The notes under the pieces: model-generated | Seen by the model: the letters and a program-made list of their open reading frames with translations, nothing else | Database searches by the model: none | Told to the model about the DNA's origin: nothing | In this document: positions 19 to 44,592 of the stretch, in pieces | Layout of the letters: each line of letters begins with the position of its first letter | How positions within the stretch are numbered: the stretch's first letter is position 1 | Translations under genes and position numbers: made by a program | Origin: Azolla caroliniana | Lineage: Eukaryota > Plantae > Polypodiophyta | DNA length: 64,000 nucleotides | Direction: 5' to 3' | NCBI GenBank assembly: GCA_043228905.1 | Contig: JBHGNT010000001.1 | Span: forward strand, 6,014,001-6,078,000

Positions 19-900
19 GTGGAAGCCGCTTGCCGGAACTACGAGGCTCTGGTAGAAGAGAAGCGGGTGGGGAAACCCGGGACGACCGGGCCCTCACAAC
101 GATACGAGACCCGGTCCGGGCCACGACGGGACGAAGCCGGCGGGGCCGGTACGCAAGATAAACCCCAGAAGGGCGGGTACCGTCTGGGGACGGAGATAGA
201 AAGAACCACGGACTTACGAAAGGTCCTGGAGGAACGGATCCTCGACAGCAAGGTGGAACTGTCGCTACGGGAGGTGCTGGGAATCGCCAAGAAGGAGTTC
301 CACGACTCCATCGTGGACTTGGTGAAACGGAAGAGGCTGTCAACGGAGACAGAACCGGAAAGACCGGTGGAAGTGCGGACGACGCACCTAGACGACATGG
401 CGCTGGGAGACGAGTGGGCGGAAAGCCACTATTCGAGACCGCACTGGGCCCGAGCGACCACGGAAACCCCGGTGAAGATCGGCGATGTCCAGGAACCGGT
501 GATAGCTTTGGTAGACCACGGATCGGAGATCAATTTGATGTCCATGGACTTCTATAAGAAGGGCAAATGGCCGATCAACACCAAGCACGGGTGGAAAATA
601 AGGGCAGCAACGCGCGCCACCGAGGAACTGCACGGGGCCTGTCCGAATGTGCGAGTCAAGATCGGCGACGTCGAGATTGACCAGCACTTCTTCGTGCAGG
701 AGACGTCTTCGCATCCGGTCATACTGGGAGAACCGTACATCACGGCGGCGCGAATGGAGACCAAGGTGCTGGACAATGGTTCGGCCTATGCGCGGGTCAA
801 GAGCCAGGACGGGCGCCATTCGGTCCAGTTTTTGACGGTTAGGCCGAACCACGAGCGTAACCGCGACTCCCTCGGTTCCGATAACCGAGAGGATTTTTAG
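19..900 (+). CDS. C-terminal gag plus aspartic protease of element A (frame open from the window edge)
   Basis: ALVDHGSEINLM protease motif and ILGEPY flap motif. Ends in GAG GAT TTT TAG. Confidence 0.9.
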   Translation: MEAACRNYEALVEEKRVGKPGTTGPSQRYETRSGPRRDEAGGAGTQDKPQKGGYRLGTEIERTTDLRKVLEERILDSKVELSLREVLGIAKKEFHDSIVDLVKRKRLSTETEPERPVEVRTTHLDDMALGDEWAESHYSRPHWARATTETPVKIGDVQEPVIALVDHGSEINLMSMDFYKKGKWPINTKHGWKIRAATRATEELHGACPNVRVKIGDVEIDQHFFVQETSSHPVILGEPYITAARMETKVLDNGSAYARVKSQDGRHSVQFLTVRPNHERNRDSLGSDNREDF

Positions 901-960
901 AGAGGGCTGCCAAGGCGTGGGGCCGCGACAGTCCGGACACCCCGGGAAAACCCCACACCT
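891..960 (+). promoter_or_regulatory. Putative -1 programmed ribosomal frameshift signal (slippery G_GAT_TTT plus H-type pseudoknot)
   Basis: Frame overlap is only 885-897. Stem 1 is 904-909/929-934 and stem 2 is 913-922/951-960 (manual pairing). Confidence 0.7.
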
Positions 961-3900
961 GTACGATAAAACCGAAGAAACCTTGTACCATAGGTAGGGA
1001 ATTTTTGTTCTCCGACAGCGGAGCGTGTACGATAGTCGGCATCGGCGGCCGAGAGAAGACAAAGGCGGAGGGGAGACTTCGAGCGTGCGGAGTTCTCGGC
1101 CCTGACGAGGAAATCAACGGAGCCGTGGAGGCGGTCTCATTCGACGACACCTTGGGAATGCTGGGAAAGGTAGTCGAAGAAGGCCTTAGCGAAGACCGGA
1201 CGATACCGGTGTGTTCCGAGGAGATGTACGAAGTCATCGCGGATTTCGGTCGAGGGCTCGAGTCAGTTCGGACGGCCCACGTAAGCACCAAGTACAAGAC
1301 TGTGGACCGGAAGGTAAGGCCAGTCGCGGCACCCTTACCGGAGGACAGCGCGTCGAGAATCAAAGGGGTTGCATCGGACCCTAGTCTACGAGATCCGGCC
1401 TGCATAGGGCACACCTTCACCGACGAGACGCTCCGAGAGCTCAAAATAGGTGGGGGCGGGTTCCTACTGCCGGCGGAGGAAGACCGGTTTCGGAGAATGC
1501 TCGGAAGGCACGGGAAAGCCTTCGCATTCTCGCCGGAGGAAATCGGGTGCGTTGACCCGACGATCGTGGAGCCGATGGTGATATTCACGGTACCGCATGT
1601 ACCATGGAATCTCAAGCCAATCCCGGTTCCGAGAGCTCACATCCCGAAGTTGATGGAGCTGCTGAGGCAGAAAGTTGATATGGGAATTCTCGAGCCGTCG
1701 AGCGCCCCATATTCAAATCGATGGTTTACCGTACCGAAGAAAAACGGTTCGTTGCGCTTCATCCAGGACCTGCAGCCGGTCAATCGAGTGACCATTCGGA
1801 ACGCAGGGATCGGACCGACCATAGACGAGTTCGCGGAGGCCTTCGCCGGAAGGTCAATTTACTCGGTCGGGGATCTATACTCAGGGTACGACTAGTTCCA
1901 GCTAGCCGTGGAGAGCAGAGACATTACGACGATGCGAACTCCCCTCGGCCTAGTTCGGATGTGTACACTGCCGCAAGGAGGGACCAACTCGGTGGCCCAC
2001 ATGGTGAATGCGATGAACAAGGTTCTGAGGGACTGTATCCCGGACATCACCATGCCGTTTCTGGACGACATCCCGATCAAGGGATGCCCGGTGGAAGAAA
2101 AGGACGAGACGATCGGGCCGGACGGATGCCGGCGATTCGTGGCGACGCACATCGACGACTGCGAGAAGGTGCTGCAAAGGCTAGAGGATGCGAGACTCAC
2201 CTTCTCCGGGGAGAAGTCGGCCTTCGGGCAGTCAGAAATCATGGTGGTCGGACACCTGTGCGGACCATATGGCCGGAAACCGTCTCCGGCAAAGGTAGAA
2301 GCCATCTCCGCGATGAAGCCCGACTGCAGCTCGGTCTCGGAAGTACGGAGATTCCTGGGGGCATGCGCGTTCTACCATATATGGATCCCGCATTACGCAC
2401 ACGTCGCGGAGCCACTGTACGGGTTGCTGAAAAAGGGGCGAAGGTTCGAATGGCTAGACGAGCACGCGGAATCGGTCCGGAAGCTGAAAGAGGCCCTTGC
2501 AGCGGCACCGGCACTCCGGAAGGCGGTATACGGGAAGGGTACCCCGGTATTCATAACGGTGGATACCAGTCCGACCGGGATCGGATGGGTCGTGAACTAG
2601 GAAGACGAGGACGGCAATCGGTTTCCGATCCGATTCGGCGCGAAAGTCCTCAGTGAACGGCAGCGAGGATACGCCCAGGTTAAACGCGAACTCTGGGGTA
2701 TTGTTTCGGCGGTTAAGGCCGACAAAGACTACCTGATAGGGACGGAAGTGATCATCGAGACGGATTGCCTGCCGATTCTCGGTATGGTTTCCGGATGCGC
2801 GACTCCGGACCTGGCGATGCTCAGGTGGATAGCGTACATCAAGTCCCTGGACCCGGAAATACGACACATTTCCGGGAAAGACAACGCCATGGCCGACATG
2901 CTTTCGAGGGCGAGGTTCGACGACGAGGGCGGCATGGTTTCGGAAGACGAAGAAGTCGGCGTGGATTTCTTCGAGGCGGCATACATAACGACCGACGGGG
3001 TGAGCACTCCGGCGCTTAACGAGTTCGACGCGAGCAAGTACGACGGGGAGTGGCTGCAGATCGGCGGGTTTTTGAAGACAATGACGCCCGATGCGTCATG
3101 GACGAAGGACGAGGCCGACCGGATCCGGAAGAAAGCATATCGATTCTTTCTCCGAGATGGGCATCTATGGAAGCACCCGAAGAAGAGGGACGGCGTCCCG
3201 CTCCGGGTGGTGGCGATGAAGGAAGTACAGGAGGAGCTACTGGCGGCCTACCACGACAGCCCTTGGGCTGGACACCGTGGAACGTGGGCGACGTTTGAGA
3301 AGCTGAAGGGGAAGTACTGGTGGCCGGGATTGTACCGGGACGTGCATCGGTTCGTGTCAACTTGCGAGAGTTGTCAGATGCACTCGATAGTCCGACACCG
3401 GGACGGGCTTCACCCTACGTACCCTCCGACTATCCACTTCAAATGGATGGTAGATCTGGTGACGATGCCGATGGGGGTAGGACAGATGCGGTATCTGGTC
3501 CTAGCGCGGGAAGACCTGACGAACCAGGTGGAAGGCCGAGCCCTTCAGAACAAGACGACCGCGGCCGTGTGTCGGTTCCTAGTCGAGGACGTGATATGCC
3601 GGTACGGGTGCGTCGGGAAGATCGTGGCTGACCGAGGGGAGTTGGACGCCGAAGAGGCCGCGGAGCTGTTCGACCGGCTTGGAGTCAAGCTCTCGCTCAC
3701 CACTGCGTACAATCCGGAGGCGAATGGAAAGGTGGAGCGCGGACACAGACCGATCGTCAAGGCGTTGATTCGGGCATGCGGAGGCCGAGTCGGTAACTGG
3801 CCCCGGCTGCTACCTTATGCTTTGTGGGCAGACCGGACCACGCACAGTTCGGTAACCGGGTACATGCCGACGGAGCTCATGTTCGGCCAGAAGCCGATCA

Positions 3901-4388
3901 TGCCGATTGAACGGACGATCTCCTCGTGGGCAACGGTCGACTGGAGGGTCGAGATGAGCCGGGAGGAGTTGTTGGCCGCACGTATACGACAGCTCGAGCG
4001 GAGACCGGAGGACGTGGCACTGGCTACGGAGAAGCTCCGGGTGGCGAGGACAAAGAACAAAGCCCGGTTCGACCGAACGCACCGGCTACGACCGAAGAAA
4101 ATCGACGAAGGTGACTGGGTGCTCGTCTACGACAGCAGCCTCGACAACCAGCACCGAGCAACGCGGAAGTTCGCACGGAGATGGTTCGGGCCGTACACGG
4201 TACAGAGCGCCAACGACAACGGGACGTATCATCTGGCGGAGCTCGACGGTACGAGAATAGCGATACCCGTGGCCGGGAAGAGGATCAAAGCTTTCAAGAA
4301 GCGGCACGACGACGAACCCGACCCGATTCTCCTGGACAGCAGCGACGACCGATCCGAGGCCGAGGAAGGGCCGGCAGGCGAAGAGTAG
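891..4388 (+). pseudogene. pol (RT-RNaseH-integrase) of element A in the -1 frame, with in-frame TAG stops at 1893-1895 and 2598-2600
   Basis: ORFs 1005-1895, 1908-2600 and 2748-4388 share one frame, which I read as open back to 885. Stops fall in YSGYD*FQL and VVN*EDE. Confidence 0.9.
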
Positions 4389-4447: not shown

Positions 4448-4460
4448 AGGTGGGGGCGGA
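4448..4460 (+). other. Polypurine tract of element A
   Basis: AGGTGGGGGCGGA directly abutting the TGTCG LTR start. Confidence 0.8.
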
Positions 4461-5177
4461 TGTCGTGAAGAAAACCGCCCACAAGAGGAATCGGAGGAAC
4501 AAGGCGTGGGAAACGGCTCTACACACACACGCGCGCCAAGATGTACCTAAGGACGAAGTAGGTACATACGAGGATCCTAGGTGGGTAGATTCGGTTGGTA
4601 TGCAGTTAATGCCAAACGGCCTCTTGACGGGCTATAAAAGGAAGAGGAAGAATAGAAGTGGGGTATCTCCCGCGGAGAGGACGAAGTGCTGCCGAACCGA
4701 TTTCGGAGCTTCTCTCTCACTCCTGCTCTCTCTGTCTTCTGCTCCATCGCGTACCTGTGCAGGTTTCGAGGAGGCTTGCGCTGTTCCGTGGAACGCCCCG
4801 AGTGCGTCCTGCAGCACCTCCGACCTGTCTTCCCTTTCTGTGCATCGCGACATACAGGGGTCGGCAGCTGTTCGCCGCCCTGTTCGTTTTCGTTAGTATC
4901 TATTTTGTGCCCCACCGTGGGTTGTAATACTTTAGTCTGTTATTTTCTTGCATTCATAAGTACATATCTCTCGTTGTTGCGTCCATCTGCGTCGGCGTTT
5001 ATTTGTGATCTCTGTTTGTTGGGCCGTGTCCCTGTGCAATCGTCGGTTCTGCGCAATCGGATCTTCGGTTCTGTGTAATCGGGTCTCTCTCTCTTACTCC
5101 TCTCTCTCTTGCTCTTCGGTTCGAGACCCCCGTGGTCCCTCCTCCTTTCTACACGCAAGGGCGTAGCAACCCCGACA
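4461..5177 (+). repeat. 3' LTR of element A (717 bp)
   Basis: TGTCG...CGACA inverted termini, TATAAAA at about 4633 and CT-rich tracts. Element B integrase sequence resumes at 5178. Confidence 0.9.
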
Positions 5178-5391
5178 ACGGTCCGACAAAATCCAACCCC
5201 CACTTCTGGAATGGCTCTAGTGGAAGTACCGGTTGGTGTGGCATCCGTGCTTGCTCCGTAGGCTGGCCCATTCGTTGGCATAGGTCACATTCCTTAGCGT
5301 ACTTGACGACGTCTTTTAACGTCGTGGGCCACCATAAGCCGCTCTGCCATACTTTCCTTGCCGTCGCTTCCCCGGCATAGTGTCCTCCGGC

Positions 5392-5865
5392 TGTCACGGA
5401 CACACCAACCTTGGACCACAATAGAGCATGGATGATGAGGCTACGATGGAGCGATGAGGCGAGGAACTTAAGATGGGGAATGACACAAGAGCATAAAGAT
5501 AGAGATGAAGATTAAAGAGAGAAGATAGGCGAAACGGGAATACTAGATTGATATGTCCATGACTGGCGTTGAATCCCTTGAATGGGACCACGAACGTTAC
5601 AAGTATTTATACTGTGAGTCAAATTACATGCATTAGAATATTCTGGAGAATATTCTAGACAATGTTCTAGATTCCTCTAGAACCTTCTCGTTCTAGAACT
5701 TTCTAAAAACTCCTAGAACTTGAAATAGATAAACGACTAACAATCTACTGAGATACATATAATATAACCATGTATTTGGATGTATTGGTTAGAGCATAAC
5801 ACTTGACTATAGTATAGGTGGTCAAGAGTTCAAATCTTGACATGACTGTTGTCATGTCTGTGACA
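5392..5865 (-). mobile_element. Solo LTR (474 bp) of a third retrotransposon family
   Basis: TGTCAC...GTGACA termini and perfect 5-bp TSD CCGGC at 5387-5391 and 5866-5870. AT-rich. TATAAATA on the minus strand at 5604-5611 gives the inferred orientation. Confidence 0.92.
5636..5719. promoter_or_regulatory. Heat-shock element (nGAAn) array in the solo LTR
   Basis: GAATATTC twice (5636, 5648), CTAGAACCTTC, a perfect 3-unit TTCTAGAACTTTC (5691-5703), and further TTCTAG/CTAGAA half sites. Confidence 0.7.
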
Positions 5866-8800
5866 CCGGCAACCCCACAGTGTGCTTCCCGTAAGATTAC
5901 TTGTTTCTCGTCACTACGGACTGCCCGTCTCCATATTCCATCTGCTCCTTTGTGGTAGAGAGTGTCCCGTAACAGACAGAAATTGCGGCTCTGCACCGCC
6001 AGTCGTTTCCTCTCGTCCCGGTTCATTTCCTCCGGTGGCAAGCCCGTGCTTAGGAACTGGTGCATGTTTGTCAGCCACCTATCTTCTGATACCACCGTGT
6101 CGTCCGCTGCCGTTTCCGGGGTGATACGGAATAACTCTGCGTCCGGGAATTCATCCGCTACTCTGTCGCCTGATTCTCCGAACTCTAACCGGCTCAGGTA
6201 GTCTGCTACGGCATGCTGGATACCGGGCCGGTGAAAGATCTCGAATTCGAACTCCTACAACAGCAAGGTCCAACGGGCCAACTTACCGGTCAGGGACTCC
6301 TTGGACACTAAGTACAGGAGCGCCGAGTGATCCACATGAAAGGAGAACTTCCTTCCCAATAGGTAATGACGAAACTTTGTGACACTGTAGATCATGCCCA
6401 GGGCCTCCCGTTCTGTCGTCGAATAGTTCTTCTTCGCTTGGGACAGCTTCCGGCTGGCGTAATATACCGGCCGATACCATTTAGGCTCCGTAAGTTGCAT
6501 TAAGGCGCTGCCGATAGCGATGTCGGAAGCGTCAACGAACACATGAAATTCCTTGCTCCAATCCGGAGGCTGCACGACGGGTGCTTGCGACAAAAGTACC
6601 TTCAGGGCATTGTATGCCTTATCCTCCGTATCCGTCCATTGGAACGGTGTCCGATGTACCGCAGTGTGTAATGGTGTAGCCAAGTCAGCCAAGTGACGGA
6701 GCATCCGGCTGTGCCACCGGATCTGTCCTAAGAATCGGTTGAGTGCTTTGGCCGTTTTCGGCGCCGGTGCCCCTAGTATCGCGTTTACTTTGTTCGGGTC
6801 GACCGCAATGCCCTCCTTACTTACAATGTGTCCCAGTAAGATTCCACTTGAAACCCCAAAGATGCATTTTGCTGGGTTTAAGCTTAGCCGGTATAACCTA
6901 CACTTTTCAAGGCATAACCGTAGGTGTTGCAAATGGTCTTTTCCCCGGCTATAGACTGCAAAATCATCCAGGAAAACCTGCATGAAGGCAGGAATGTATT
7001 CGCCAAAGATCTCCATGATGATTCGCTGGAAAGTTGCTGGTGCCGTTTTTAGGCCGAACATCATTACTTCGGCCACAAACACCCCCCATTCGGTGACGAA
7101 CGTTGTCTTCTCCTGGTCGTCGGGGTGCATCCGGATTAGATTGTATCCGCTGAACCCGTCTAAAAAACTATAAACTTCATGGCCGGCGACGGCATCCAGT
7201 ACTCCATCCGTGAACGGAAGAGGGAATGCATCCGTAATTGTGGCTGCATTTAATTTCCTGTAATCTACACACACGCGGATTTTACCGTTCTTCTTTGGGA
7301 CGACGACGATGGGGCTCAGCCACGTCGCTTTCTTTACCGGCCGGATGAAGCCCACTCTCAGGAGTTTGTCGATTTCCTCCTTCACTTTGGCAGCGTAGTT
7401 GGGGTTCATTCGGTAACGTCTTTGCGCCACTGGTTTTGCGTCCTTGCCTAAGTGGATCTGATGCTGATATAATTGAGGGTCCAGCCCTCGCATGTCTTCG
7501 TATGACCAGGCGAATACGTCGCGAAACTCCGTGAGAAGTTTGATCATCGCCGCTTTATCTTCCGGCTTCATTTCTTTGGCGATGTGTACCGGCTTTGATT
7601 CGTCCTTGCTTCCGAGGTTCACTTCGTCGAGCTGGGATGTTTTTACCCGTTGGGAAACGGCCATTTCCCGTTCCAACGCTTCCTGTGCTTGCCGTAATTC
7701 CCGAATCGCATCTTTGTCTGGTTCGGCTTCGGTTTCGTCCCGCTGCGGCAAGTATGGCGCTACGGCTTCAGCCACGTCAATCTCGAAGAGTGGTACGATC
7801 TTCGGGTGTTCCTCCAAGTACTGGGCTTCTTCGTCGTCTGCCAACCCTTCAAGCATGTTCACGCATTCCGCATACAGCGGTGTGCATTCCTTACCGTTGC
7901 TCGTCCGTGGTTGTGTCGGTACCCGGACCTTGGCTTTTCCGCGCCGGAAGGTAATCATATTTTTCCGCCAATTTTGCTTGATGTGTGTTGTTTTCAACCA
8001 TGGTCTGCCCAACAACAGTGGGTACGCGCCTTGCGCCTGTAGCTGCAGCACTACAGCCGAGATGTGAAATGTGTGACCTCCTATGGTGACTTCCAATTTC
8101 CGTATTAAGCCCGTCGGCCGTACAGAGCTTGTATCCGCCATCCGTAGCCAGAACGGACATGGCTCCCATTCATGTATACCCAAGGCATCACACGTGTGGA
8201 GGCTTATTACGTTCACCCCGGAACCTCCATCGATTACTGTGCCGGGAAGTTCGTGCCCTTTGACAATAGCTGTAATCACCGGACTACTAGTGTCCACCAC
8301 CGTCGGTCCCTCCTCCGGATTCGAGAAGAGAACTGGTGCCGGTGGGGCTATACCGTCTGTCATGACCGTTTTTAGTCCTTCCGTAAATCGCGGCACGAGC
8401 TGCAAGAGTCTTCCTAATGGCAACGTGATCTGACATTCTTGCAGTGCTTGCCACGTCTCGTTTTCTGGGTGGCTACCGCCGGTACTCCCTATGGTATTCG
8501 CCTTTTGCCGTTCCGCGTCCGCGACGTTCCTTTCATTGGCTTCCTTCACCCATTCCGTCGCCTGTTTTCGTATGGCCTCTTGTGTTTCCCACTCTTTGGC
8601 CATGCCTTTCGACCGTGTGGTTACTTGCTGTATATCCGCCACTTCCGGAACCACCATATTAACTGCTGGTCGTTTATCGTAGCTCTTTGCCGGGCATTGG
8701 TTACTGTAGTGGCCTTCCTGCCTGCAGTAATAGCAGTACTCTTTACGGGTATTGCTGGATTCAGCATTGCTGGTATCCGGAGTCGGTCCCGTAGTGAGTG

Positions 8801-10573
8801 GTGCGTTCTGTGCCGGTTGGCTCCTTGGGGTTCCATGTTCCGGGTCCCTAGTGTGACCACCTTTCTTGAAATTACGTTTCTTATTATTCTTATTTTTATT
8901 TCGGTAGTCCGGTCGTGGTGGATCGTAAAATCGGCCGTAGTCCTCCTGGTGCCTTCGGTAACCAGGGGAATGGTCTCTGTCGTATTGCTCGTGTCGTCTG
9001 TTGGGCTCCCGATAACGGTCCGATCGCTCATACCGGTCGTAGTTATCATGCCGATTCCCGTACCGGCCATCATTCTCTTGTCTGTCTCCGTACCGGACAT
9101 CCTGTGCCGGTCGGTACCGGTTCATTCTTTGCCAACGATTGTCATCTTCGTCTCGGCTGCTTCTTGGCTCGATCCGCCGGACGGGTGGTGCTTGTTGGTT
9201 TAACAGGTTATACTCGCACCGGTCCGTTGTATGACTCTTGGATTGACAAATCACACACTGAGTTCGCATGGTGCACTCCACTGCCGAGTGTCCGGCATTC
9301 AAGCAGATTGTGCATTGAATTGCCTGCCGGAACCGGAGATCTTCCTCGGTGGGTAACGCCCGTTGCAGTGTTCCCAGTGTAAGCCATGAGCTTGACTTTT
9401 CCATTTCTCTGACCCGGTCAATGACCTGGTCAATGGTGCTTCCTCGAAAGTCGATTACCGTACACACCGTGCGTAACGGTTCCCGGAGTGCGTTTAAAAA
9501 TATCGTCCGTAATTCCTCCTCCGGGGGTGCACGGGCAAGCTGGCTATGCATTCGTTGGAAACGGATGACGAATTGGGGAATGCTTTCCCCTGCCTCCTGT
9601 CGGATCGTATAAAACAGGCCCACCATTGTCGTCTGGTCGACCTCCTTGTGGAAAAAATGCAAGAATTTTGCTTTTAATTCTGCAAAGGTTGTGATGGTCG
9701 CCGGGTCCTGCGTCCGTTGCCATCGTGTCGCTGGTCCTTCCAACGTGACCCCGAATTCCGCTATCTTCGAGCGTTCTTCTTCCTCCGGTGTCATTCGCTG
9801 GGACGTGTGATTTGCTTCCCATGTCTGCTCGAAGGCATGAACATGCGCTTCCGCGTCCGGGTCATCGCGATACTTTGAGTATTGGAACGGCATGTCGTCG
9901 TCTAGTATTAGGCCGCGGTTTAGTAGCGTTTGTTGATATCTTTCCGGTTTTCTCTCCGGTTCGACTTCCGGTTCTTTTGCCGGTGCTTTTTCCGGTTCCT
10001 CTTCTGGTTCTTTTTCCGGTTCCTTCACCGGCTCTTCTTCCGGTACCTTTGCCGGCTCTTTCGTTGGTGTCGGTGGCTTTGCTTCTTCCACTTCCGGTGT
10101 TGGTGGGTTGACGGCTTCCGTTTGCGGTTCCGGATAGCCCTGGTTGAGCGGTTCCGGTTCTGGAGTCGGCACGGTATCCGACCCGTCGTCCTCCGGGCCG
10201 CCGGGGGTATCGTTGCTGCTCCGGTAGTTCGTGTGCACGCTGTATCCCCCTTCGGAATCCGATTCGTAGGCTGAAAAGGCTTCTTCCTCGTTTTCTCCGC
10301 TTGCCAGCGCCTCTAGGAGGCGTTCGGTTTCCCGGAGACTACTTAGACTGCTTCCGTCGTCCTAGTCGCGAGTTTGCTGTAACCGAAGAGATTCCTCCGC
10401 GACTCTCCGGATCTCGTTGGAGAACGAACGATCCGAGCGAATTTCGTGCGCTGCTTGCTGGAAAGTCTCACGCCGTCTTTGCCGTTCGGCGAGGCGTCGA
10501 GCTCGGTCTGTAACTAAGTCGTGCGTTGGTCTAGTCATCCATTACCGTCGTTCGCTGCGAGAAAGCAGGAATC

Positions 10574-11010: not shown

Positions 11011-11560
11011 GATAGAGCCGCAATTGTCCACATGTAAGTAAGGAGTAAAAAAAAAGATCCGGTAAGATTGTGCATGCTGAAAGGTGGATCACATAGTCAA
11101 AATAATGAGGGCGACGGTTTCTGGTATATGATTTGTCTGCTAGACATTACGATGTTGGATGCGTTTTTTGTTGTTGTTGTAATAGTACTTTTGCATGCTA
11201 GACATGAGAAGGAGGGATTCAATTTTCGTATCACTGCGTATGTGTTGTTTCGTGTTCTAATCTGCTCAAATGCCAGATTGGCGTATGTATGTATTAACGG
11301 CAAGAGACACGCACATCTGTCTGTTTTTCTTTCTTTCTTTCGTGAATATATTCGTTGTTAACCTGTTCTGCGTGTGTGCGCGTGTGTCTATAACTATAAT
11401 TTGTTGTTAATCCGCTTCCTTTCTGTATTATTGATGTTGAGCAGGATAAGTTACCAAAGAGTCTGAGTAAATTCGTGATGGTGATGGTGAGAGCTAGAGA
11501 CATAACTACATGTAATTAACCAGTTGCAAAATCCAATTATGAATGTTTTGACATTATCTG

Positions 11561-14077
11561 ATGAATCCACATCAAAGCCGCAAGATAATCGCATGTCAAG
11601 ATCGGAGAAAACACACTTCCATCTCATGTTTCCGTTTCAGGCGTGCACCTAGTCATTATTCACATGGATATCGTGAAGATGATTCTGCTCAGAACGGAAA
11701 TGTAGATGTAACATCCGGTGAAGGCACAATCTATGATGACTTCATAGACTCTCAAGACAATATTCATGAGCTAACAGGATTGATGTCAATTGTCTATGAT
11801 TCAACTTCAACAATCATAGGCCGCGATGTAAACAACAGAAGAAGTGATCACGTGGATGGATCATCAATGGGTAATCACGAAGTAAAGACTCGAACAAGGA
11901 GATGCTGGAGCCTTCGTGATGAATATACACTCTTAAATTTACCTGATCCTTCGCTACATCCACGTACTATTGACGACATTGATCAGAAGGTTCACACGGC
12001 GCCAAGATCTACAGTCAGTGAATTTGCATCAGAAATCAAGGAAGAGAGTCACGGAACCAAATCAGACGGAATATGTCCATGGAAACTTGAACATATTCAT
12101 GACGCAAAAGACCAATTTTATCCTGAAGAAGAAGAAGTAGATGGTCATGGTACAGAGATCCAGTCATCTGGAAGGCATTATAGCAAGTTCCAGTTATTGC
12201 ACGAGAAGAAAGGAGTTCTTGGATACCTCATACGTTGCAAGAAGCGAGTCACCGAGCGTCTGATGAATCGCGATGTTTCCAAGTCCAAGAGTCGATATTC
12301 AAATCAGGGAGAAGGTTCACCATTAAAGCTGGGAGCTGCTTCAAGAAGTCATAAATGGCAAGCAATGATCAGAAAGCGCATAACCTCATCCCCATGGCAG
12401 GAGTTTAATCATGCTGCAAGTGAATACTATAGTAGTGCAGGAGATGAAGAGATTATGTCCATGGCCATGGATACCTACAGAGCAACTAGCAAGGGTGAGA
12501 TAAATCAGGATATAACTAGATCAAAAGAGATAAACAGTCAAGAACATTATGAGTCATTAGGATCAGATTCTGATCAACAAGGCAGAGCTATGTCCAGAGG
12601 ATCAATTGTTCCGTATATACTTTCCAGTAACTATAATGATGATAAGGCCGTTTCATTAACATGTACTTCTGTCTCTTCTAGCAACTCGAGATCTGTTGAA
12701 GATGTGCTTAATGAGCGAGATGCCATGGAAGTCTTGAAGGTGAAAAGAGAGAAACGTTCTCAGATAAAGAAAGATGAAGTATTTGATATGAAAAGTGATA
12801 GAGGATCAGGTCGTACAGAAAGATCTGTAAGTAGAAGGCGCTCGTTAATCTGGCCGAGGAAGAGAGGAAGGAAATGGACGTATAACGTTGATACCATCTC
12901 TGAGCAGAAGACGCGTGATCAGCTTGCAGGAGCAGAGGAGAAAGTGGTAACTTCTCATCGTGACAATAATAAGACGATACGGAAAGAAAAGTACCATAGC
13001 AGTTTCAATATTAAGAAGAATTCTGAAGTCGTTAATAGTGAATACATCGATCAAGGTGAAGAAGAAGATCTAAAGCTCAAAAAAAATATGAAAGAAATTA
13101 AGTCTCTGGATATACCGACGGAGGCTCAGCACTGGCTCCTCTGGACGTGTTTGGCATCAGCACCTATTCTGCGAGAGTTTCAGGAAGCTGTTGAAAACGC
13201 ACATTTACAGATGAGGATGCTCTCAGGTTTTATTGCTATCCAGAAAGACACAGAAATTATGGCTTCTTATAATAGCTGCACAGATGTTATTCATCATTAT
13301 CACCGGAGCAATGTGACTAGTAGCAGCACTCTTGAAGATACACGAAACCATGTCTTTGCTAGCATAATGGAAGCAGGAATACAGATATCTGGAAGCTTAA
13401 TCAGCTTTCAAAGGCCATGGCACATCAAATATGCACTAGACGCTTGCGTAAATTCCATCTTCTTTAAGATTAATCTTCATCGATTTTCAGAGGAAAACAG
13501 TACTAATAGCTGTGCAGAATACAGAATAATTAGCCGATCATCATCATCTTCTTCTTCATCTCCGCTAACCGCTAAATTATCTTTCTTGGAATACAATCCC
13601 AGTCAAGGATTTGAATGCTTCTTGACTAGCAGAAGGAAAGCCACAGAAGAACTCATAGGAACTGAGATGGAGAAGTGGTCTGAGCCTCTGAGGAGCATCT
13701 TTTTGGCATGCGCTGTCTCTTGTTTCCATGTCTATACACTCATTGCAGCGAGTGGGTCACGCATGGACTCTGTCAAGATTATCCATCCTCTCCATGGAGA
13801 TCTTTTTGATGAAACCGCCATGGATCCTTTGGACAGTGGTTATAATATTAGTAGCAGTACAGGATCCCATATTGAGCTTCACAGTCATCGCTGCCCTCCA
13901 AAGGTTCTATTCACCATCTTCACTGGCTTTGCATTGCATTATGATTATGATGATGAGGAGCATCGGGAATGGAAGATACTGTGCAAACCTCAGGTTTACA
14001 TCACATCAAAAGCTCTGAGGAGGACAACTACATGGATCGGTATGGCATCCGGTTATCCATTCATTCATCACGGATGA
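11561..14077 (+). CDS. Intronless 838-aa protein with a long low-complexity N-terminus and a C-terminal IRK-interacting/GIL1 (DUF641-family)-like region
   Basis: Long ORF in AT-rich DNA. Motifs FQRPWHIKYALD, FLACAVSCFHVYTL and VLFTIFTGF...CKPQVY resemble the IRKI/GIL1 C-terminus (recognised by eye). Confidence 0.65.
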   Translation: MNPHQSRKIIACQDRRKHTSISCFRFRRAPSHYSHGYREDDSAQNGNVDVTSGEGTIYDDFIDSQDNIHELTGLMSIVYDSTSTIIGRDVNNRRSDHVDGSSMGNHEVKTRTRRCWSLRDEYTLLNLPDPSLHPRTIDDIDQKVHTAPRSTVSEFASEIKEESHGTKSDGICPWKLEHIHDAKDQFYPEEEEVDGHGTEIQSSGRHYSKFQLLHEKKGVLGYLIRCKKRVTERLMNRDVSKSKSRYSNQGEGSPLKLGAASRSHKWQAMIRKRITSSPWQEFNHAASEYYSSAGDEEIMSMAMDTYRATSKGEINQDITRSKEINSQEHYESLGSDSDQQGRAMSRGSIVPYILSSNYNDDKAVSLTCTSVSSSNSRSVEDVLNERDAMEVLKVKREKRSQIKKDEVFDMKSDRGSGRTERSVSRRRSLIWPRKRGRKWTYNVDTISEQKTRDQLAGAEEKVVTSHRDNNKTIRKEKYHSSFNIKKNSEVVNSEYIDQGEEEDLKLKKNMKEIKSLDIPTEAQHWLLWTCLASAPILREFQEAVENAHLQMRMLSGFIAIQKDTEIMASYNSCTDVIHHYHRSNVTSSSTLEDTRNHVFASIMEAGIQISGSLISFQRPWHIKYALDACVNSIFFKINLHRFSEENSTNSCAEYRIISRSSSSSSSSPLTAKLSFLEYNPSQGFECFLTSRRKATEELIGTEMEKWSEPLRSIFLACAVSCFHVYTLIAASGSRMDSVKIIHPLHGDLFDETAMDPLDSGYNISSSTGSHIELHSHRCPPKVLFTIFTGFALHYDYDDEEHREWKILCKPQVYITSKALRRTTTWIGMASGYPFIHHG

Positions 14078-19217: not shown

Positions 19218-22200
19218 ATGGGCAGTATGCATCGTGTAGGCAGCACGAGCAACATGTCGAATTCAGCACGCTCTCGGAAAGAGCGCCGCTTAACATATGT
19301 TCTTTGTGATACCTATAGTCCAAAGGTGTGTGAAAGGGAAAAATACGATAATTTATACATTCATGATTTTAAATCTGATGATGTGCATGTATATGGCAGC
19401 ATTGTTCAGGGATAAATAGTCTTAAAGTAGGTTCTTGTGAAGGCGATAGGAATGATACCTTATTCAGTGGCAGCAGGGATGGCACATTGAAAAGATGGGA
19501 GTTGGCTGATGAAACAGCCACATGTACTGCAACATTTGAATCTCATACAGATTGGGTATGGATAGATTTTCTGTCCTGTAGCACGAAGCTACTGTATTTA
19601 TACTAATCTTTTGACTGTTACAGGTAAATGATGTAGTTTTGTCAGGTCAAACACTAGTTTCGTGCTCATCTGATACTACGGTCAAGGTGTGCCATTGTAT
19701 ATCTTACATTCTAAAATGCTAATGGATTTGTTCATATTTCAATTTTATAAATATATCCGCTTTCCGAAAAGAAAAAGGGAAAAAGCTGAAAGAATCAATG
19801 CACTTTCACTTGTACGGGACCTGCGTGGCCATTATATTTTTTGAATGTAGATGGCCTATTGTTTCTTCGGAGCCTAGCCACAAACGGTCTGTCTGAGTCA
19901 CTTGTCTAGACAGTCTTGTTGTTGGTATAGATGATATGGCAGCTCCGATAATGATGTCAAGGCTATTATCTTAATTTGTTTAAATTGATTGAGGATATGA
20001 TTGTAGAAATATGTCACATTTTAATATTTTCAGACTTGGGGAGCTTTCTCAGATGATTGGCATTGTTCAAAAACTTTCCGTCAACATTCTGATTATGTTA
20101 TTGCCCTTGCAGCAGCAAAGCATGTGAGTGTTGGGAAAGTTTATACTTGTATGGGATAACTAAATTGGATCTTTAGTTATAATGAATGAAATATTTGAGC
20201 ATTTGTTTGTGTCGTTCTTTATTTCTTTGACGATGCAGAGTAACATCATTGCATCTGCTGGCCTTGGTGGTGAAGTGTTCGTATGGGACTTAGATGCAGC
20301 CTCTGCACCCATTTTGAAGTCTGCAGTAGATGAAAACACACCCGAAAAGAACAGTACCCTGGGACCATCTGCTCCAATAACCAGCTCTGATCGTTCTCTT
20401 GGTACAAGCTTCAGTACTGCTACACAAAATTCATTACCATCACAAGGATATACACCTATCATGGTTAAGGGCCACAAGGAATCTGTATATGCATTGGCTA
20501 TGAATGATTCTGGTACCATACTTGTTTCTGGTGGCACTGAGAAGGTTGTGGCATATGCAATAAGATAATTTTGGACTTTGCAGCATTCTCTTATGTCAAC
20601 TGAAAGTGGTTGATGATGATTTCTGACAGGCAGTTAGGGTGTGGGACCCGAGGTCTGGTACAAAGAAAATGAAATTGAAAGGTCACACTGATAACATACG
20701 GGCTTTGTCTCTCGATCCCTCTGGCAGGTAACAATATGCTTGCAATTTATCCATCCTACTGTATGGATGCCAAATACAATACAAGACATCGTCAATATAT
20801 TGCCATGCATGTGATATGTATTTTTTTGCTTTGCGTTTCTCACAGATTCTGTTTGTCTGGGTCTTCAGATTCCGTGATCAGGTACACATATGTTTGAAAT
20901 TAGATCTGTATGCTGAAATAATCCTGTCACTCAGCCTTTACTAATTTTCCTATATTTTGTTTTTGTAGACTATGGGATTTAGGACAGCAGAGATGTGTGC
21001 ACTCTTATGCTATCCACACAGACTCGGTATGGGCTTTTGCAACTACTCCATCTTTCAATCGTGTTTACAGTGGTGGACGTGATCTTTCTGTAAGTTCCAA
21101 GTTTTCTAGTTTGATGTTGTCCATAGCTCAATCAGGAGGGTTTGAAACACTAAGATTATTGTGTATGGTAATTATTCAGGTTTATTTGACTGATCTGATG
21201 TCTCGTGAAAGCTTGCTTATATGTTCAGAGGATGGTCCTATTCTTTCTTTAGCCTTGCAAGGTGAAGACTGGCTGTGGATTGCCACTTCGGACTCTTCAT
21301 TGCATAAATGGCCTACCAAAGAAAGAAGCTCAGCAAAACATTTATCCAAAGCAAGCTCCTTTCTGGCTGGTACCCTACCCTTTGCTAGGGCAAGAGCATG
21401 TTTAGAGAGCTCACCTTCTGTAAGTATGTTTCCACTGTCAATCACAATTTGTAGGCTTGCATTCTCTGAAGGACGGAAGAAAAAGCAAGAGCAACCGTGC
21501 TTCTCGTCAACAATGTGCAGTATAATAAATGGTATCCATGTTTCCAGGTTCCCTTATATACAAAACCTGCATGCATTGTACCAGGAACACCTGGAATTAT
21601 CCAACACACGGTTCTCAATGATAAGCGCCATGTCCTAACAAAGGTGTACTGCATTTGTGGGAATTTAATGCTTCTAGTTCCACCAGCTTCCTATTCTTAC
21701 TTTCTCTATGTGTTTGTTTAAAAAAGGATACTGCAGGTGTTGTAAAGCTCTGGGAAATAACCAAAGGTGCAGCAATAGCTGACTTTGGCAATGTAAAACC
21801 CTTTTGATACAGTTTCTATAGTTGTTTCCCATTTGTTCATGTTCTTCTTTTTGATGGGAATTCTTGGTGGCCTTTGGGGTGTCTTTAATATGCTTTCTTA
21901 TTTATAGGTGCCCTTTGAAGAAAAGGAAAAGGAATTGTTTGAAATGGTAAGCCTTGAAGTCAGGCTATTAATGGTCTGCAGCAGAAAAAGGAAAATATCC
22001 TTTGAATAGAAAAAACTTATGGCAATTGTTCACATTTCATTTGGTGTGGTCGTGACAGGTGAGCATACCTACATGGTTCACAATAGACACACGGCTTGGT
22101 AGCATCTCTGTTCACCTTGAAACTCCGCAGTGCTTCTCGGCTGAAATGTATGCCATTGATCTCCAAGTGGCAGGAGCAACTGAAGAACAAAAAGTAAGAT

Positions 22201-24714
22201 AACTTGATGAAAACAATTAGTTTTAATGAGTGATGTTTTGATGAAGTAAACTGACAATACTGCTTCTGGTTGGTTCTAATATGGATGCAGCTATTCAATT
22301 CATACAATCAATTGCTGAATTTGCCCATTTTCATTTTGAGGCATGAAATAAAATCCATTCATTGGTTCTCTATGTGTGGGTTATGCACTCAAGAGTGAAG
22401 ATATGTTTGCCTCTCCTGGTTACTTTTTCTGTAGAATGATATAAAGAGAAAAATAACAACAATCTTTGTTGAGTGGATTTACGGTCGTTCACTACCTAGA
22501 GTTGAAAAGAAATTGTTTTAACAAAGCTAGTTGCTCGTTCATGTTTTTGTTCTATAAAGTGGATATTTAAATCTGGAAACAAATCTATGCGTGTTTATCA
22601 CTGCTAGTAGAAATGCTGTGAAAGGGTAATCTTGCCTTAATTTAAGATTCTTTATGAAAAATGGTGCGTGTTTTGTTACATTTTCTTGAGGTAAATACTT
22701 ATTTGTTCGGTGTCCTTCTGATATACAGATATGTATTTAGATGAAAATGTATAGTCAACTAATTTTCTCATCCCTCTCTCTGGTTGTAATGTTTATCCTT
22801 TGTTGCCCATTCTTCCATAGTTTGAGTGATAGATGACTGGGTTGATTGTGTGAACATCTGCAATATTGTATGTGTAAATATTATTGATCATGCCAACTGT
22901 CATCATAGTACTTGAAATATGGTATTTTGTTGAGTTCCTGCTATTATGGAACTTATACCTCCTTTAATGTTCTGCAGTTAAACTTAGGTCAGGAAACAAT
23001 TCGGGGGCTATTTTCACGTTGGCTAGCTTTGAGACAACAAAAAGCCACACCATTACTTGTTATTGATGGTGATAAGCAATCTAGTTATGAAGCTGAGAAT
23101 GGAAACCATATGAATAGCAAAACGCCTGCAAACTCGGATTTACGTTCTGGTATTGAAAATGGACCTCCAACAACTTATCCTGCATTTGACTTCTCAGATT
23201 TGTCTCTGCCTTCAATAATAACTGAAGGAAGCCAAGGAGGTCCATGGAGAAAAAATCTTACTGAACTGGATGGGAACGAGGATGAGACGTCTCTTCCTTC
23301 CTGGTGTTTGGATACTCTTCTTCAAGGAAAGCTTCCTCCTAGGGAAAACGCCAAGTCAGTTTTATTTTTCCTGAACTCTACTATATGACTTTAGCTATTT
23401 TTCCATTTTGGATTTGCAACCAAATTCTAAATTTTTATATATAACAGGTGCAGCTTCTATCTGCATCCTTTTGAAAGCTCCATGACACCAGTACCGTCAC
23501 TTACATCAGGGAAGTTGAGTGCCCCTCGTATCCTGAGGATCAACAAGGTACAAATTCTTCAAATTTAGCTTGAACTTTCTTGAGCTGCGTCCCTGATGAT
23601 AGGGGTAAGGTAGTTAATGAGGACTTTGGAGTTAATGAGATGTAATCTTTCTCATTCAAATATTGAATATTTGTCAGGAAGTAGATATTCCTTAATGATA
23701 GAATGTGTGACTATACTGAATTTCACTGGTAACAGATATGGTAAAAACACTAAATGCATGCATTTTTCATTTCTCTTTTTTACTCTATTATCTTTTAGAC
23801 TTTCTCATCCACATTGTATTTTGATTTTTCAAAATCAAATGATAATTGGGAATGCACAGATTGAGATTGAGAGTATTTAATGGATAAATACGTAAGTTTT
23901 GGTGGATTGGGTATGACAAAACAGCTTGTTTTATCTTTTCCATAGATATTTATTTCTGCTCTATTGTCTTTCAGACTTTCTCATCCGCTTTCTATTTTGA
24001 TTTTTCAAAATCGAATGATAATTGGGGATGCATATATTGAGGTTGAGAGTATTTAACGGATAAATAAATAAGTTTTGGTGGATTGGGTATGACAAAACAG
24101 CTTGTTTTAGTTTACTTTGTTTTAATTGTATCTTTTGCATAGATACTTGTTTTATCCAACCTATGCTGAAAAAGTAAACAATATCCGCAAGTTTTGGTGG
24201 ATTGAGTATGACCCAACAGCTTGTTTTAATTTGCACTTTGTTTTGTGCTTGAAAATGGTAAATGCTGTGTGTAGATTTTGTTTTTTTAATACCTAAAGCC
24301 AAAAGCCTAAACAATACCCTCATAACACAGGTTATTAATTATGTGCTGGAGAAGCTTGTGCTTGATAGGCCATTGGAGGAAGGAGCAGCTTATACTAACA
24401 GCCAACAACAGATGATGAATGGTAGGCCTAGCTCAAGACCATGGCAACTTGGAACTCGACTAGAAGTGGAAATACTTTGCAATAACCAGGTAGATGCACC
24501 GAGAACAGAACCTCTTACTTGTTAAAGAATAAAACTTACGTGCATATTATTGTTGTTTGTATAATGTGGCTGCTTAGATCCTATCTCATGGGATACACAT
24601 TTGACAAATTAACAGGTGCTTCGTCCAGAAATGAGTCTCGCAACTGTTCGGCAATATATATGGAAAAAGCCTGAAGATCTCTACTTGTATTATAGAATTG
24701 CATCTCATCGCTGA
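19218..24714 (+). CDS. WDR48: WD repeat-containing protein 48 / UAF1 (LRS1-like), about 17 coding exons
   Basis: MHRVGS...[10 protein letters not shown] start and WD40 repeats ([38 protein letters not shown]). C-terminus [13 protein letters not shown]...[25 protein letters not shown] exons include 19218-19325, 19400-19555, 19624-19686, 20034-20123, 20239-20544. Probable 5'UTR intron 16567-19205. Confidence 0.93.
23790..24235. repeat. Intronic tandem duplication (about 180 bp x 2 plus a partial third copy)
   Basis: Repeated AGACTTTCTCATCC...TAAGTTTTGGTGGATTGGGTATGACAAAACAGCTTG. Confidence 0.8.
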
Positions 24715-26784: not shown

Positions 26785-29617
26785 ATGGCTATGGCTTCGT
26801 CTTGTTCTCCTTCTTCCAGCTGCTATTCTCCGCGCAAATCTCCGTCCTCCATAGCCATGCTCCTCGCAGACAAGAATACATCTTCTCTTTCTTTTCCTCC
26901 TTTTTCTGCTGCACCACTCCCTTCTACTCTATTTCCGTTCCTTCCACCATCATCGGACAGTATATTTCAGAGGCAGTCCGAGCAGCAGCGGCAGAAACAG
27001 CAGCAGCAGAAGAAGATAATATCCATGTCGGATGTTCATCATCATCAGAATGTTCCTCGAAGCTCTTTCTCAAGAGGCATGTTGGTTCTTCTCACATCTC
27101 TCATTCTTCAAGAAGAAGAGGAAGCTTCTTCTTCTACAGGAAAAAACACTGCTATCGCTTTCTCTCTCGGAATCTGTAAGTTCCATTAAAATTCTTGGTG
27201 CCTTTTCCTGCAAAAATATCTGTTATCCAGCATTTTCTCCTCCTTAAATGCTTTTGATATTGCTTTCTCTTTTGTAGCATTAACAGATACAACTAAACCT
27301 TCAGAATTATGCGAACTTGAATTTGCTTGTTTATTTTGTTTCTCTATTTTTTTCCGAATGTAACAGTTGTGAAATATCTAATAGCATTTCATTCTTTTGC
27401 GTTCCTTTTTTGCTGAGAATTAAGAGTCGTAAAAGCTTCCAAAATCTGTCACTTGCAGTTTCTCCATTTCTTTATCTTTTGCAGTATTACAATATTTGAA
27501 ATCTATATCTAGCATTTCCTGCTTTTATTTCTGCAGAAACAACGTCAAGATCTTTCAACTACAGGAAACTTGCATTTGCAGATCCTTAATTTGATTTAGA
27601 TTTTATAGAATTGCCAATCTACCAAATCCTTTTTTCATTAATTTTCATTTTGGAGATTGATCAGTTGTCTTGAAATCAGTCTAATTCTGTTATCTTGCAT
27701 TTTCTCGTTTAATTGTTTTCTCTTTTTGCAGAGAATTAACAATAGTGAAACCTTTAAAATCTGTAACTTAAACTTCTGCAATTCTATTGCTTAGAAAATC
27801 CTCTGAACGATTAAGGCTGTCTGTGAGTCCTATACAATTATTAGTTATGTGTTCAGGTTATTCCTTTCCAGATAAATTTATATAATATACTACATACCAT
27901 CAGGCACAAAGCACTCGGTATAAAGTATCCCTGTATGCTATTTCACTTAGCACTTTGGATTTAAATGAAGCATTTTCCCTTGATGTAGTCACTAAACATT
28001 ATGCTTATGCTTATATTTGTATTGCTAATTTTAGTATAAAAAGTCTGGTATGTTTGGATAACTAATCTAACATTACATAGCCAAGCGGTTCAAACATTAC
28101 ATGTTATTCTACAATCTTTATCAGAAAATATTGAATCTTGTGATGTGAATGATTGATGTTCTAGGTTTCGATAGCCAGTTCTTACATTGCATGTTGTTGT
28201 ACTTGATAACCAGCTAAAGCACCACATATTGCACTTGATAGCAAGTAGCATTATAGGTTATTGTACTATGATCATCATAAATAGTTGAATCTCCGCATTT
28301 AAAAGCAATTGGTTTTCTATATTTAGATAACCAGTTCTAATATGACTAGCCAATCTGCTTTAAGAGGAAATGCTATTTTACTACGGCAATTTACTAGCAG
28401 AAAGATTGATTCTTGTCATATGAATAATCAGTTTTATATGTTTCCCAATAGCAGGACCAAAAGAATGGTTGAAAGGTCAGAAAAAGAAGACTTCAGAGTT
28501 CCTTATAGCTCCAATACTAGCATCGCGTGAGAGATTGAAGAATGCTATGTCATTAGCTGGTACTCTATGTTGTCATTTATGCATTTTGCCTCTCTCATCA
28601 AAACCAAGTGTGTTTAATGTAAATTAAGTTTGTATAGTGTTTCTCATCAAAATCAAGTGTCTCATAAAAAATAAAGTGTGGTTAGTCTTTCTCATAGAAG
28701 TCAGTGTGTTTTGTCTTTCTCATCACAATAAAGTGTGTGTGTACATAGAGTCAAACACTATCAGCGGTATGGAAGAGGCCCAAAGGCTTGTCAACATGGC
28801 TGCCCGGGACTGTCTCAAACCTGAAGATGGATCAATTATTGCTTTTCAAGTAAAGACAGGAGTTGAGGTAATATATAATTTGCATTCTTTATTTTAACAA
28901 GTTCATGATTGTGCAATTGCACATTTTGGCAAAGTCTGTGTACATTGCACATTCTGTTAGCCTTGTTTTCATGTAAGATGTAGTTTATTAAATTTGAAAA
29001 GTGTAGTGTGTATTGCATTCGAAATAGGAAGAAAACGAGCTATTTAAATTTTTTATTTCATGCACTTATGTTACTTTCAGGTATGTACATTTCGACTTAT
29101 TTTGAAAAATGCAGCTTCTCTTCTCGATGATCCTGATCCAATCAAATTAAATGCGAATGAAGCCTTAGATACTCTAATCAGGTTTTCACTATTTTTAGCA
29201 GAATTTTGCACAGTTAATAAGGTAGGGTTTTCAGACTTCTTTTTAATACTGAATTTATTTATGCAGCTCATTTGAAGCTCTCAGTGATGTTCTATCAAAC
29301 AATTTTGTTGGAAGCTCCTTAGGAAGGTTAGATGTGAAGTTTATGATATAATATTAAATTCTGGCGGTTTAGGATTTTCTATTATTATATGGTTGTTTTG
29401 TAATACAGTATAATTATATGGCTGCTATTTAGCATGGGTGATTATTGTGTGTGGTTTAGCATTTCTGATCAGCACTTGTCGTTGAGCATGTGGTAAGTGT
29501 TATGTAAAACTTCCATTTTCTTAATGCAGGGATACGATCATGAATGCTTTCAATCAAGTAAATATTGCACTTGATGGTTTCGAGATTGGGGTACGAGAGT
29601 GTCTTGGGATTTCCTAA
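26785..29617 (+). CDS. Conserved plastid/thylakoid protein of unknown function, At2g36145-like, 6 exons
   Basis: Ser-rich transit peptide. Spliced product reads AIA|FSLGISGPKEWLKGQKKK, FLIAPI, AARDCL, FQVKTGVEVCTFRLILKNAASLL, LDGFEIGVRECLGIS*. Approximate exons 26785-27175, 28454-28559, 28751-28867, 29081-29181, 29267-29326, 29529-29617. Homolog assignment is from recall. Confidence 0.8.
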
Positions 29618-40900: not shown

Positions 40901-42422
40901 AGTGCATATCCTTTAGATATTTTCCTATGTTGAAAAAGCACAATCCAATGCATAAATTATTATAATAATTCAAAATATTAACCAATCATCAATTTCTTGG
41001 TGTTGTAGGCAGTTCTTTGCACCGACGTAGTGCCATATAGCTCACAAGTAGGGCTAGATCTCATATATTGCTAGGAAGGAGTAAACACTTGTTTATGCAT
41101 TAGAAAGAAGGGGAATTGGATGGAGAATTATAGCTCAAATGGAATTGAGATGTGTTACATAATCCATTTATGTCAATTGTAGTAATTTGTATTTCTCTTA
41201 GTTACGAGGATTAAGCAACAAGGAAATGGAACAAAAATGCATATTCCAAACATTGAGGCAGTTATCATCATAACGATCATGGAATGGGTCTGAGAATCAA
41301 TCGAAAGCCCACGATATCACAAGTCAATACTTGATGAATGGCTTGCATGTAGCATAGGAATCAAGTGTTTCCAAAGACAAAAACCCCCATATGCACATTC
41401 CCAACATCCCCCCTCCCCCCCCCTTTCTTCAATTCATCCTTCCTTGATCATCAATAAGAATTCAATGTGTCAGCAACGCAATGTTTGGGTGATCGATGGA
41501 AGGCGTGAGGTATGGAATATCAACAAGTTAAGGAGGGATGAGAGAGAGAGAGAGAGAGTGTGTGTGTGTGTGTGTGTGTGCATGTGTAAAACGAGCCGAG
41601 CCACACTGTGTAAAAAAGAAAAGCATAGTGGAATGAGAATCAAAGATAGATAGATATTTAGATAGACAGAAATACAATACAATACAAATACAATACAAGA
41701 CATAGGTAAAGAGAAGCTAGTAAAATCGGGGTGTGGTTTGTTGATGGGACAAGACTTGTGTAAAAAGAGGAAGAGGTGGGTGGGGTGCATGCATGCATGC
41801 ATGCGTATGTATATATATGTATGTAACGTAACGTAACGTAATGTATGTATATAATGTATGCATGTATGTAATGTATTCATGTACATTGTGTAATGTATGC
41901 ATGGTATGTAATGTATGTGTCTGTTGACAATGAATGAATGTGGTGAATCGTGATATGCATCTTCTTCGCTCGCTCGCTCGCTATGAGAATGAATGTATAT
42001 AAATTACTAAAGTCAGCGCCGTCTCATCTCCTCCTCCTCTCTTTTTATTATTTTCTTCTCACTAACAAAAACAACTCCTCTGTTCCATCACAACTACATA
42101 CATACATCACATACATACATACATACATACATACATACATACATACATTCTAAATTAATTCCTCTTCTTCTTCTTCTTCTTCTTCTTCTTCCTCCACCAT
42201 ACATACTATCAGAACAGACAGAGTCCTCTGTTCTCTTCTTAACACACACACACACACAAACACACACATTCATACATGAAATAAATAAATAAATAAGTAA
42301 ATAAATAAATATATAAATCTATGTAGAGTCAGAGATAAGGGAAGTGCAGCAGAAAGAGATTTTGAAGGGGCAGATAGATAAGAGATAAGAGATTAGAGAT
42401 TAGAGATTAGATTAGAATACAT

Positions 42423-44559: not shown

Positions 44560-44592
<33 letters not shown>

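Follow-up and report, generated by a model that had tools for sequence, protein, structure and literature searches.

Pseudoknot-stimulated -1 ribosomal frameshifting most probably parts Gag-protease (Gag-PR) from reverse transcriptase, RNase H and integrase (RT-RH-IN) in a Ty3/gypsy retrotransposon that, judged from its sequence, is Phygy-like, and would yield Gag-PR in excess over RT-RH-IN; we put the probability of this reading at about 0.88. The mechanism is a known one in a new setting; the junction likely carries a deeply conserved recoding signal of moss, liverwort and fern elements. The element begins beyond the left edge of the window (the whole 64-kb stretch of DNA that was analyzed). 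Its features are as follows:

1-900, + strand: Gag-protease ORF, 3' part (5' end beyond the window), with DUF4100 and aspartic protease, C-terminus REDF
882-884, + strand: TAA shutting the -1 frame upstream, read from the sequence
885-4388, + strand: Pol frame, comprising linker, RT, RNase H and integrase, with two stops in this copy
891-897, + strand: slippery heptamer G_GAT_TTT of the X_XXY_YYZ type, in Gag-PR phase
891-1286, + strand: linker of 132 codons (-1 frame) that spans slip site to RT-proximal TKYK motif and shows a coding signature ahead of its first ATG
898-903, + strand: Gag-PR stop TAG plus AGA, forming a 6-nt spacer (stop TAG, TAA or TGA among relatives)
904-911, + strand: 5' arm of predicted stem 1, with both-side changes in 6 of 8 pairs
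927-934, + strand: 3' arm of predicted stem 1, pairing with 904-911
917-922, + strand: 5' arm of predicted stem 2, GTGGGG, pairing with 951-956
951-956, + strand: 3' arm of predicted stem 2, CCCCAC, preceded by a 16-nt loop 3
932-946, + strand: rival hairpin across the 3' arm of stem 1 in the window copy (-6.6 vs -7.0 kcal/mol for stem 1)
4448-4460, + strand: polypurine tract, from the sequence
4461-5177, + strand: 3' LTR, TGTCG...CGACA, 717 bp, similar to the 5' LTR of the relative L002
5178-5181, + strand: right-hand target site ACGG of the NCGN type (left copy beyond the window)

The layout of this junction had been described in an earlier note made from the sequence alone, and we recovered it in full. 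Gag-PR ends in GAG GAT TTT TAG (frame 1-900, TAG at 898-900), and the RT frame lies at -1, is open from 885 to 1892 behind the TAA at 882-884, and has its first ATG at 1158 (placed by the note at about 1157). Because of this TAA, the frame change is confined to 885-897, where the heptamer and, after it, the 6-nt spacer are both present as claimed. The note's description of the geometry as canonical is likewise borne out by a phased heptamer within the overlap, an open -1 frame and a spacer leading to a predicted pseudoknot; G_GA heptamers and spacers of 5-9 nt are established for -1 frameshifting (PMC5009743, in excerpt). Taken singly, the signal of the window copy is not above chance, the 10-mer GGATTTTTAG arising in 22 of 100 window shuffles; it is the conservation among relatives, and not the window copy alone, that lifts it above chance.

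The Gag-PR ORF matches PF13352 (E 1.6e-7) and, weakly, Asp_protease_2 (E 0.016), and the four ORF segments of the element, all scanned with Pfam, contained no chromodomain and no additional RNase H. The in-frame pol stops of the window copy (1893-1895 and 2598-2600) are a minority state, being absent from most contigs aligned in four DNA runs; this copy retains the shift signal, yet full Pol cannot be made from it. There is no second copy of the element within the window. The element sits inserted in the integrase region of another Ty3/gypsy element (5149-10361, - strand), which has Gag-PR-RT-RH in one 1368-residue frame and is also interrupted by further sequence at about 5390-5870. An open frame of 841 codons lies at 11552-14077 (+ strand). 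At 20164-23388, 42411-44894 and 57850-59523 (+ strand) and at 32313-36124 (- strand), motifs read by eye suggest host-like genes (exons of WD40 repeats, a WRKY factor and a PPR protein) together with a LINE-like RT; the host is a land plant.

A metagenome scan yielded 165 stretches encoding relatives, and the best 80 (65-97% identity) were kept; 32 of these stop short of RT and 48 reach it. Among the 48, RT lies at -1 with the frame open back past the Gag stop in 40 loci, which form 20 clusters at 90% and 15 at 80% nucleotide identity. One further locus is at -1 with a linker stop, two are open at +1/-2, and five decayed loci have a +1/-2 or 0 offset with linker stops. The two +1/-2 loci bring the open loci to 42, which at 90% nucleotide identity fall into 22 clusters and at 80% into 17, two of the clusters being the +1/-2 loci. 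PR and RT in one continuous frame, the arrangement that the earlier note had named as speaking against it, occurs in none of the 48. A search of viral contigs found no relative.

The slip site is conserved along with the offset. Within the best 80 of the 165 loci, GGATTTT stands in phase in 60 and out of phase in 2, GGATTTC is found in 2 and GGTTTTT in 3; the other 13 have none of these, 6 of them ending before the junction. Among 23 internal Asp-Phe pairs of Pol, a single one uses the codon form G_GAT_TTT, which places the constraint at the junction on the nucleotides. Downstream, the linker is 120-132 codons long across relatives. In 26 loci with open linkers, the RT frame shows conserved first and second codon positions before any ATG occurs; no ATG is conserved, the first Met ranging from residue 4 to residue 112, and third-position identity is higher over the knot (0.71 vs 0.52-0.58).

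The predicted pseudoknot is close to that proposed earlier, with some amendments. Positions 904-909 and 929-934 are complementary as claimed, but stem 1 of the family is longer, at 8 bp (904-911/927-934), with one mismatch (910/928) in the window copy. Similarly, 917-922 and 951-956 are complementary and this 6-bp core of stem 2 is conserved, but its AGG/CCT extension is not general. Of the structure predictions that the note had called for, a pseudoknot search scored the window copy above 38 of 40 shuffles, but nested MFE folding told little: at 885-985 the nested fold scores like shuffled sequence (z -0.15) and has stem 2 and the hairpin 932-946 in place of stem 1. A TCCGG...CCGG hairpin across the 3' arm of stem 1 recurs in the closest families (L001-L006 and L012-L020) and could compete with the knot. 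Rfam returned no match for the junction at E up to 10.

Comparison among relatives carries the structural case, and the compensatory changes that the note had asked for are there. We aligned 34 junctions, hand-picked from 81 sequences to cover distinct families, and RNAalifold returned the 8-bp stem 1, with compensatory changes in 6 of 8 pairs and 6 broken cells of 272. No shuffle of 500 matches the stem 1 covariation in any measure, in controls that ignore relatedness and with a structure derived from the same sequences that were tested, many of the loci being reassemblies of the same families. Pairing of stem 1 is 86% in the true register vs 22-42% in slid registers. Stem 2 (4-10 bp, at 9-18 nt past stem 1) is found in all 34 aligned loci; its arms score 16.0 with their own partners vs 14.1 when cross-paired (0 of 2000 permutations as high) and vs 10.0-10.7 with windows further downstream, and in 16 divergent loci the own-partner score is 15.7 vs 12.9. 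An alignment-free H-type search found a knot in 53 of 57 distinct junctions, and in 50 of the 57 the fold was matched by at most 2 of 40 shuffles. One locus, L063, has the same geometry with both stems rebuilt from different letters (GCGAGA with TCTCGC). This locus (L063:2758-2830) is the sole JGI locus, its stems are such as the protein ends in Physcomitrium and Adiantum imply, and the 5' arm of its stem 1 has an alternative long-range pairing of 7-8 bp.

The ends of homologous proteins extend these observations to named hosts. Of 162 homologues, 120 were listed, including 91 unnamed ORF calls that end in DF-stop (64), [NG]F-stop (6), DFxx[VMI]P[LF]-stop (16), QVFD-stop (1) or otherwise (4); none of the 91 contains RT. 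The form DFxx[VM]PL-stop is the zero-frame reading of an L063-type spacer and stem 1. As far as protein sequences tell, DF-stop or DFxx[VM]PL-stop ends 4 of 14 proteins from Physcomitrium, 3 of 9 from Riccia and 3 of 6 from Adiantum, and several representatives at 38-46% identity have the same C-terminal ends. One ENA ORF call at 46% identity (P0246, from an 8777-base contig) has PR and RT in one frame of 1374 residues, which holds protease, RT and RNase H with a portion of integrase and lacks the Gag N-terminus; the search for such fusions covered lengths up to 2000 residues, so longer ones could be missed. Two proteins, P0188 and P0240, end in FFKDYG-stop and FFQDYG-stop; the terminal Asp-Tyr would set the stem-1 motif in the register of the -2 clade described below and is possibly another offset variant. 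A search from a distant homologue gave 2 hits and no named fungal protein. In the Atlas, look-alikes of P0003 (0.95-0.96) include Basidiomycota clusters of 829-864 residues with DUF4100 and protease and no RT family listed, a lead by which fungal kin may be split at the same Gag-PR/RT boundary. The frame split accounts for the stand-alone 'DUF4100' proteins or fused models of gene predictors.

The earlier proposal that recoding makes Gag-PR in excess is thus supported by the conserved offset, the phased heptamer, the spacer and the covarying predicted stems. On our model, most ribosomes would end at the UAG and release Gag-PR, while a minority would pause at the predicted pseudoknot 6 bases past G_GAU_UUU; the Asp and Phe tRNAs would then slip together from GAU UUU to GGA UUU, and the shifted ribosomes would continue through the linker of about 130 residues into RT-RH-IN. 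Protease would be as plentiful as Gag, and the RT-RH-IN enzymes scarce. Tandem tRNA slippage at a ribosome paused by a knot is an established -1 mechanism (PMC5009743, in excerpt). RNA data comprised 327 reads from three polyA runs of a related organism, with a depth of 8-25 across the junction in the three runs; the reads are thin, map to both strands and possibly include DNA, and are therefore not proof of expression.

Among the rival explanations, splicing as in Ogre, in which an intron would remove the Gag-PR stop and join PR to RT in frame, has a precedent at the same boundary (PMC6317226, in excerpt), and 12 of the 120 listed homologues are indeed fused eukaryotic gene models (9 Physcomitrium, 3 Riccia), four Physcomitrium models sharing a join between KDFGE and EVL. 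Among the remaining fused models, however, the point of joining differs, as expected of introns made by a predictor. No donor is conserved before the stop either, 5 of the 26 loci lacking a GTR over the last 70 nt, with the others varying, and in the family of the element the stop directly adjoins the heptamer. The 327 RNA reads contain no joint, a weak test given their depth of 8-25, both strands and possible DNA. Splicing also leaves a phased heptamer at a fixed distance from the knot unexplained; we consider it very unlikely. Much the same low chance is given to separate translation of Pol, be it by reinitiation, by internal entry or from a subgenomic RNA, with the structure serving that start. 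The Gag stop right at the structure and the poorly conserved linker would suit such a start, whereas the lack of a conserved ATG, the RT-frame coding signature that starts upstream of the first Met and, in the thin RNA data, read starts without pile-up argue against it; the heptamer, moreover, would be superfluous.

Slippage of transcription or of reverse transcriptase in the T run would add a base to some mRNAs. A five-T run lies at the junction and slippage at shift motifs has precedent (PMC5737442, in excerpt), but the run is short, RNA reads of low depth show no indel at 5%, and a conserved downstream pseudoknot, as predicted, at ribosome-footprint spacing fits translation; we hold this to be highly improbable. 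The chance is close to negligible that the offset is decay, from an indel specific to the copy or to a family founder, with stems arising by chance or serving packaging or dimerisation. The window copy is decayed, with its two pol stops, and single-copy statistics are weak, but the offset recurs in 15 clusters at 80% nucleotide identity with long open Gag and Pol, and the same protein end is found in moss, liverwort and fern. Nor did four DNA runs (27,575-35,474 contigs aligned per run) show a junction indel at 10%. The copy-specific indel, which the note had named as speaking against its reading, is thus largely refuted. Stop-codon readthrough was rejected because RT lies out of frame.

The two open +1/-2 loci, L053 and L056, form a sister clade of their own. 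They are 77% identical, carry CAG_GTT_TTT with a knot 5 nt downstream (L053:2835-2910 and L056:2497-2572), their Pol frames being open over 856 and 866 codons. The -1 frame is shut at once in L053 and within stem 1 in L056, and the homologous linker is open in the -2/+1 frame. The two group together in the tree (98/100); the base of the tree is open and the outgroup branch very long, so the direction of the switch is not given. Protein ends of this kind are QVFD-stop in 6 of 15 members of one cluster and QVFY-stop in 2 of 4 of another (among the members listed), and the RT frame of the clade is seen in two contigs only. These data suggest a natural switch from -1 to -2 frameshifting. Loss of one base would turn G_GAU_UUU with its 6-nt spacer into AG_GUU_UUU with a 5-nt spacer, and the outcome would be a -2 shift driven by RNA structure at an arterivirus slip site, without a protein cofactor; spacers 1-2 nt shorter favour -2 shifting (PMC3458567, in excerpt). 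AGGUUUUU may serve as a candidate -2 slip sequence beside GGAUUUU as the -1 sequence. The offset may instead reflect a +1 shift or a common dead-end deletion.

The slip site itself resembles that of PRRSV nsp2TF. Both L053 and L056 show RG_GUU_UUU with the downstream gene in the -2 frame, as at arterivirus slip sites, and share the identical AG_GUU_UUU, which is the PRRSV -2/-1 site (PMC7618472, in excerpt), as well as a -1 frame shut immediately or a few codons on. Unlike them, PRRSV does without RNA structure and depends on a CCCANCUCC motif together with proteins, according to the excerpted text of PMC7618472; this motif is absent 10 nt downstream in L053 and L056, and a predicted pseudoknot is present instead. 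If true, the clade would put the spacer-tension model of frameshift direction to a natural test. With -1 and -2 sister clades that have one common knot and lie one base apart, control of direction becomes open to direct testing in plant extracts. We lean slightly towards the broader picture of an ancient non-seed-plant lineage, perhaps with fungal kin, that uses a pseudoknot-driven -1 shift after the protease and in which one clade has naturally switched.

As for lineage, 8 relatives of the 14 loci examined have a readable flank, and in 6 of these NCGN precedes the 5' LTR; one PBS, putatively of the tRNA-Trp type, is common to 14 of 15 loci. Compared with viral contigs, this PBS gave 31 matches, none a tRNA gene. 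The nearest named homologues among the matches listed are from Physcomitrium, at 61-71% in PR. The NCGN target site, the lack of a chromodomain and of an extra RNase H, and the compact size are all like Phygy (PMC6317226, in excerpt). Phygy is described there as Physcomitrella-specific, whereas the relatives found here reach Riccia and Adiantum. Its ORF organization is given as 'ND' in REXdb and in the available text of PMC6317226, the standard plant classification; the layout of the Phygy-like lineage is here resolved as GAG-PROT that overlaps with RT-RH-INT, which the table of that text does not list.

Reports of the signal itself were sought in the open literature, where no listed title or abstract describes it, although subscription journals lay outside this search and an earlier remark may exist. 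The word 'frameshift' is absent from the P. patens TE paper PMC7466625, the available parts of PMC5014426 and PMC8708638 hold nothing specific on this signal, and PMC12786077, in excerpt, cites splicing as the sole mechanism characterized in plants.

Among viruses, one parallel is the pro-pol junction of MMTV and HTLV (beta- and deltaretrovirus), where a -1 shift at the protease's end likewise leads into RT (PMC5009743, in excerpt). MMTV and HTLV need two shifts, whereas the present element would need one, after an in-frame Gag-PR. RSV, too, carries its protease in gag. The wording of PMC5009743 differs on that point, and its excerpt also names alpharetrovirus gag-pol as a -1 likeness. The likeness to RCNMV that the earlier note had drawn stands for the heptamer alone, because RCNMV has a stem-loop with long-range pairing (PMC5009743, in excerpt). 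Dianthovirus and umbravirus sites, with G_GA as the XXX triplet in the same source, have a bulged stem-loop pairing kilobases downstream, and the element a predicted local H-type pseudoknot. The exact RCNMV heptamer is G_GAU_UUU.

Among plant elements, Tcn1, Selgy and SIRE also have overlapping frames, but at the Gag/protease boundary (PMC6317226, in excerpt) and not after the protease. The note had called the position unusual, which holds in that an overlap after the protease is absent from the available text of PMC6317226, but the split of Gag-PR from RT is itself not rare. Ogre and Retand of the Tat clade, both with aRH, part Gag-PR from RT-RH-IN at the same boundary by a spliced spacer and a single in-frame stop (PMC6317226, in excerpt). 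Unlike them, the present element has overlapping frames, a slip site and a predicted knot, and in place of an Ogre-type spliced junction the 26 loci show a coding linker and no conserved donor. A 2003 survey of plant LTR elements, as reported in the excerpt of PMC5009743, found +1 offsets only; here a cellular plant element carries a complete, covarying -1 signal, with its structure predicted, and would provide a third route to an excess of Gag-PR over RT, beside the intron of Ogre and the stop of Retand.
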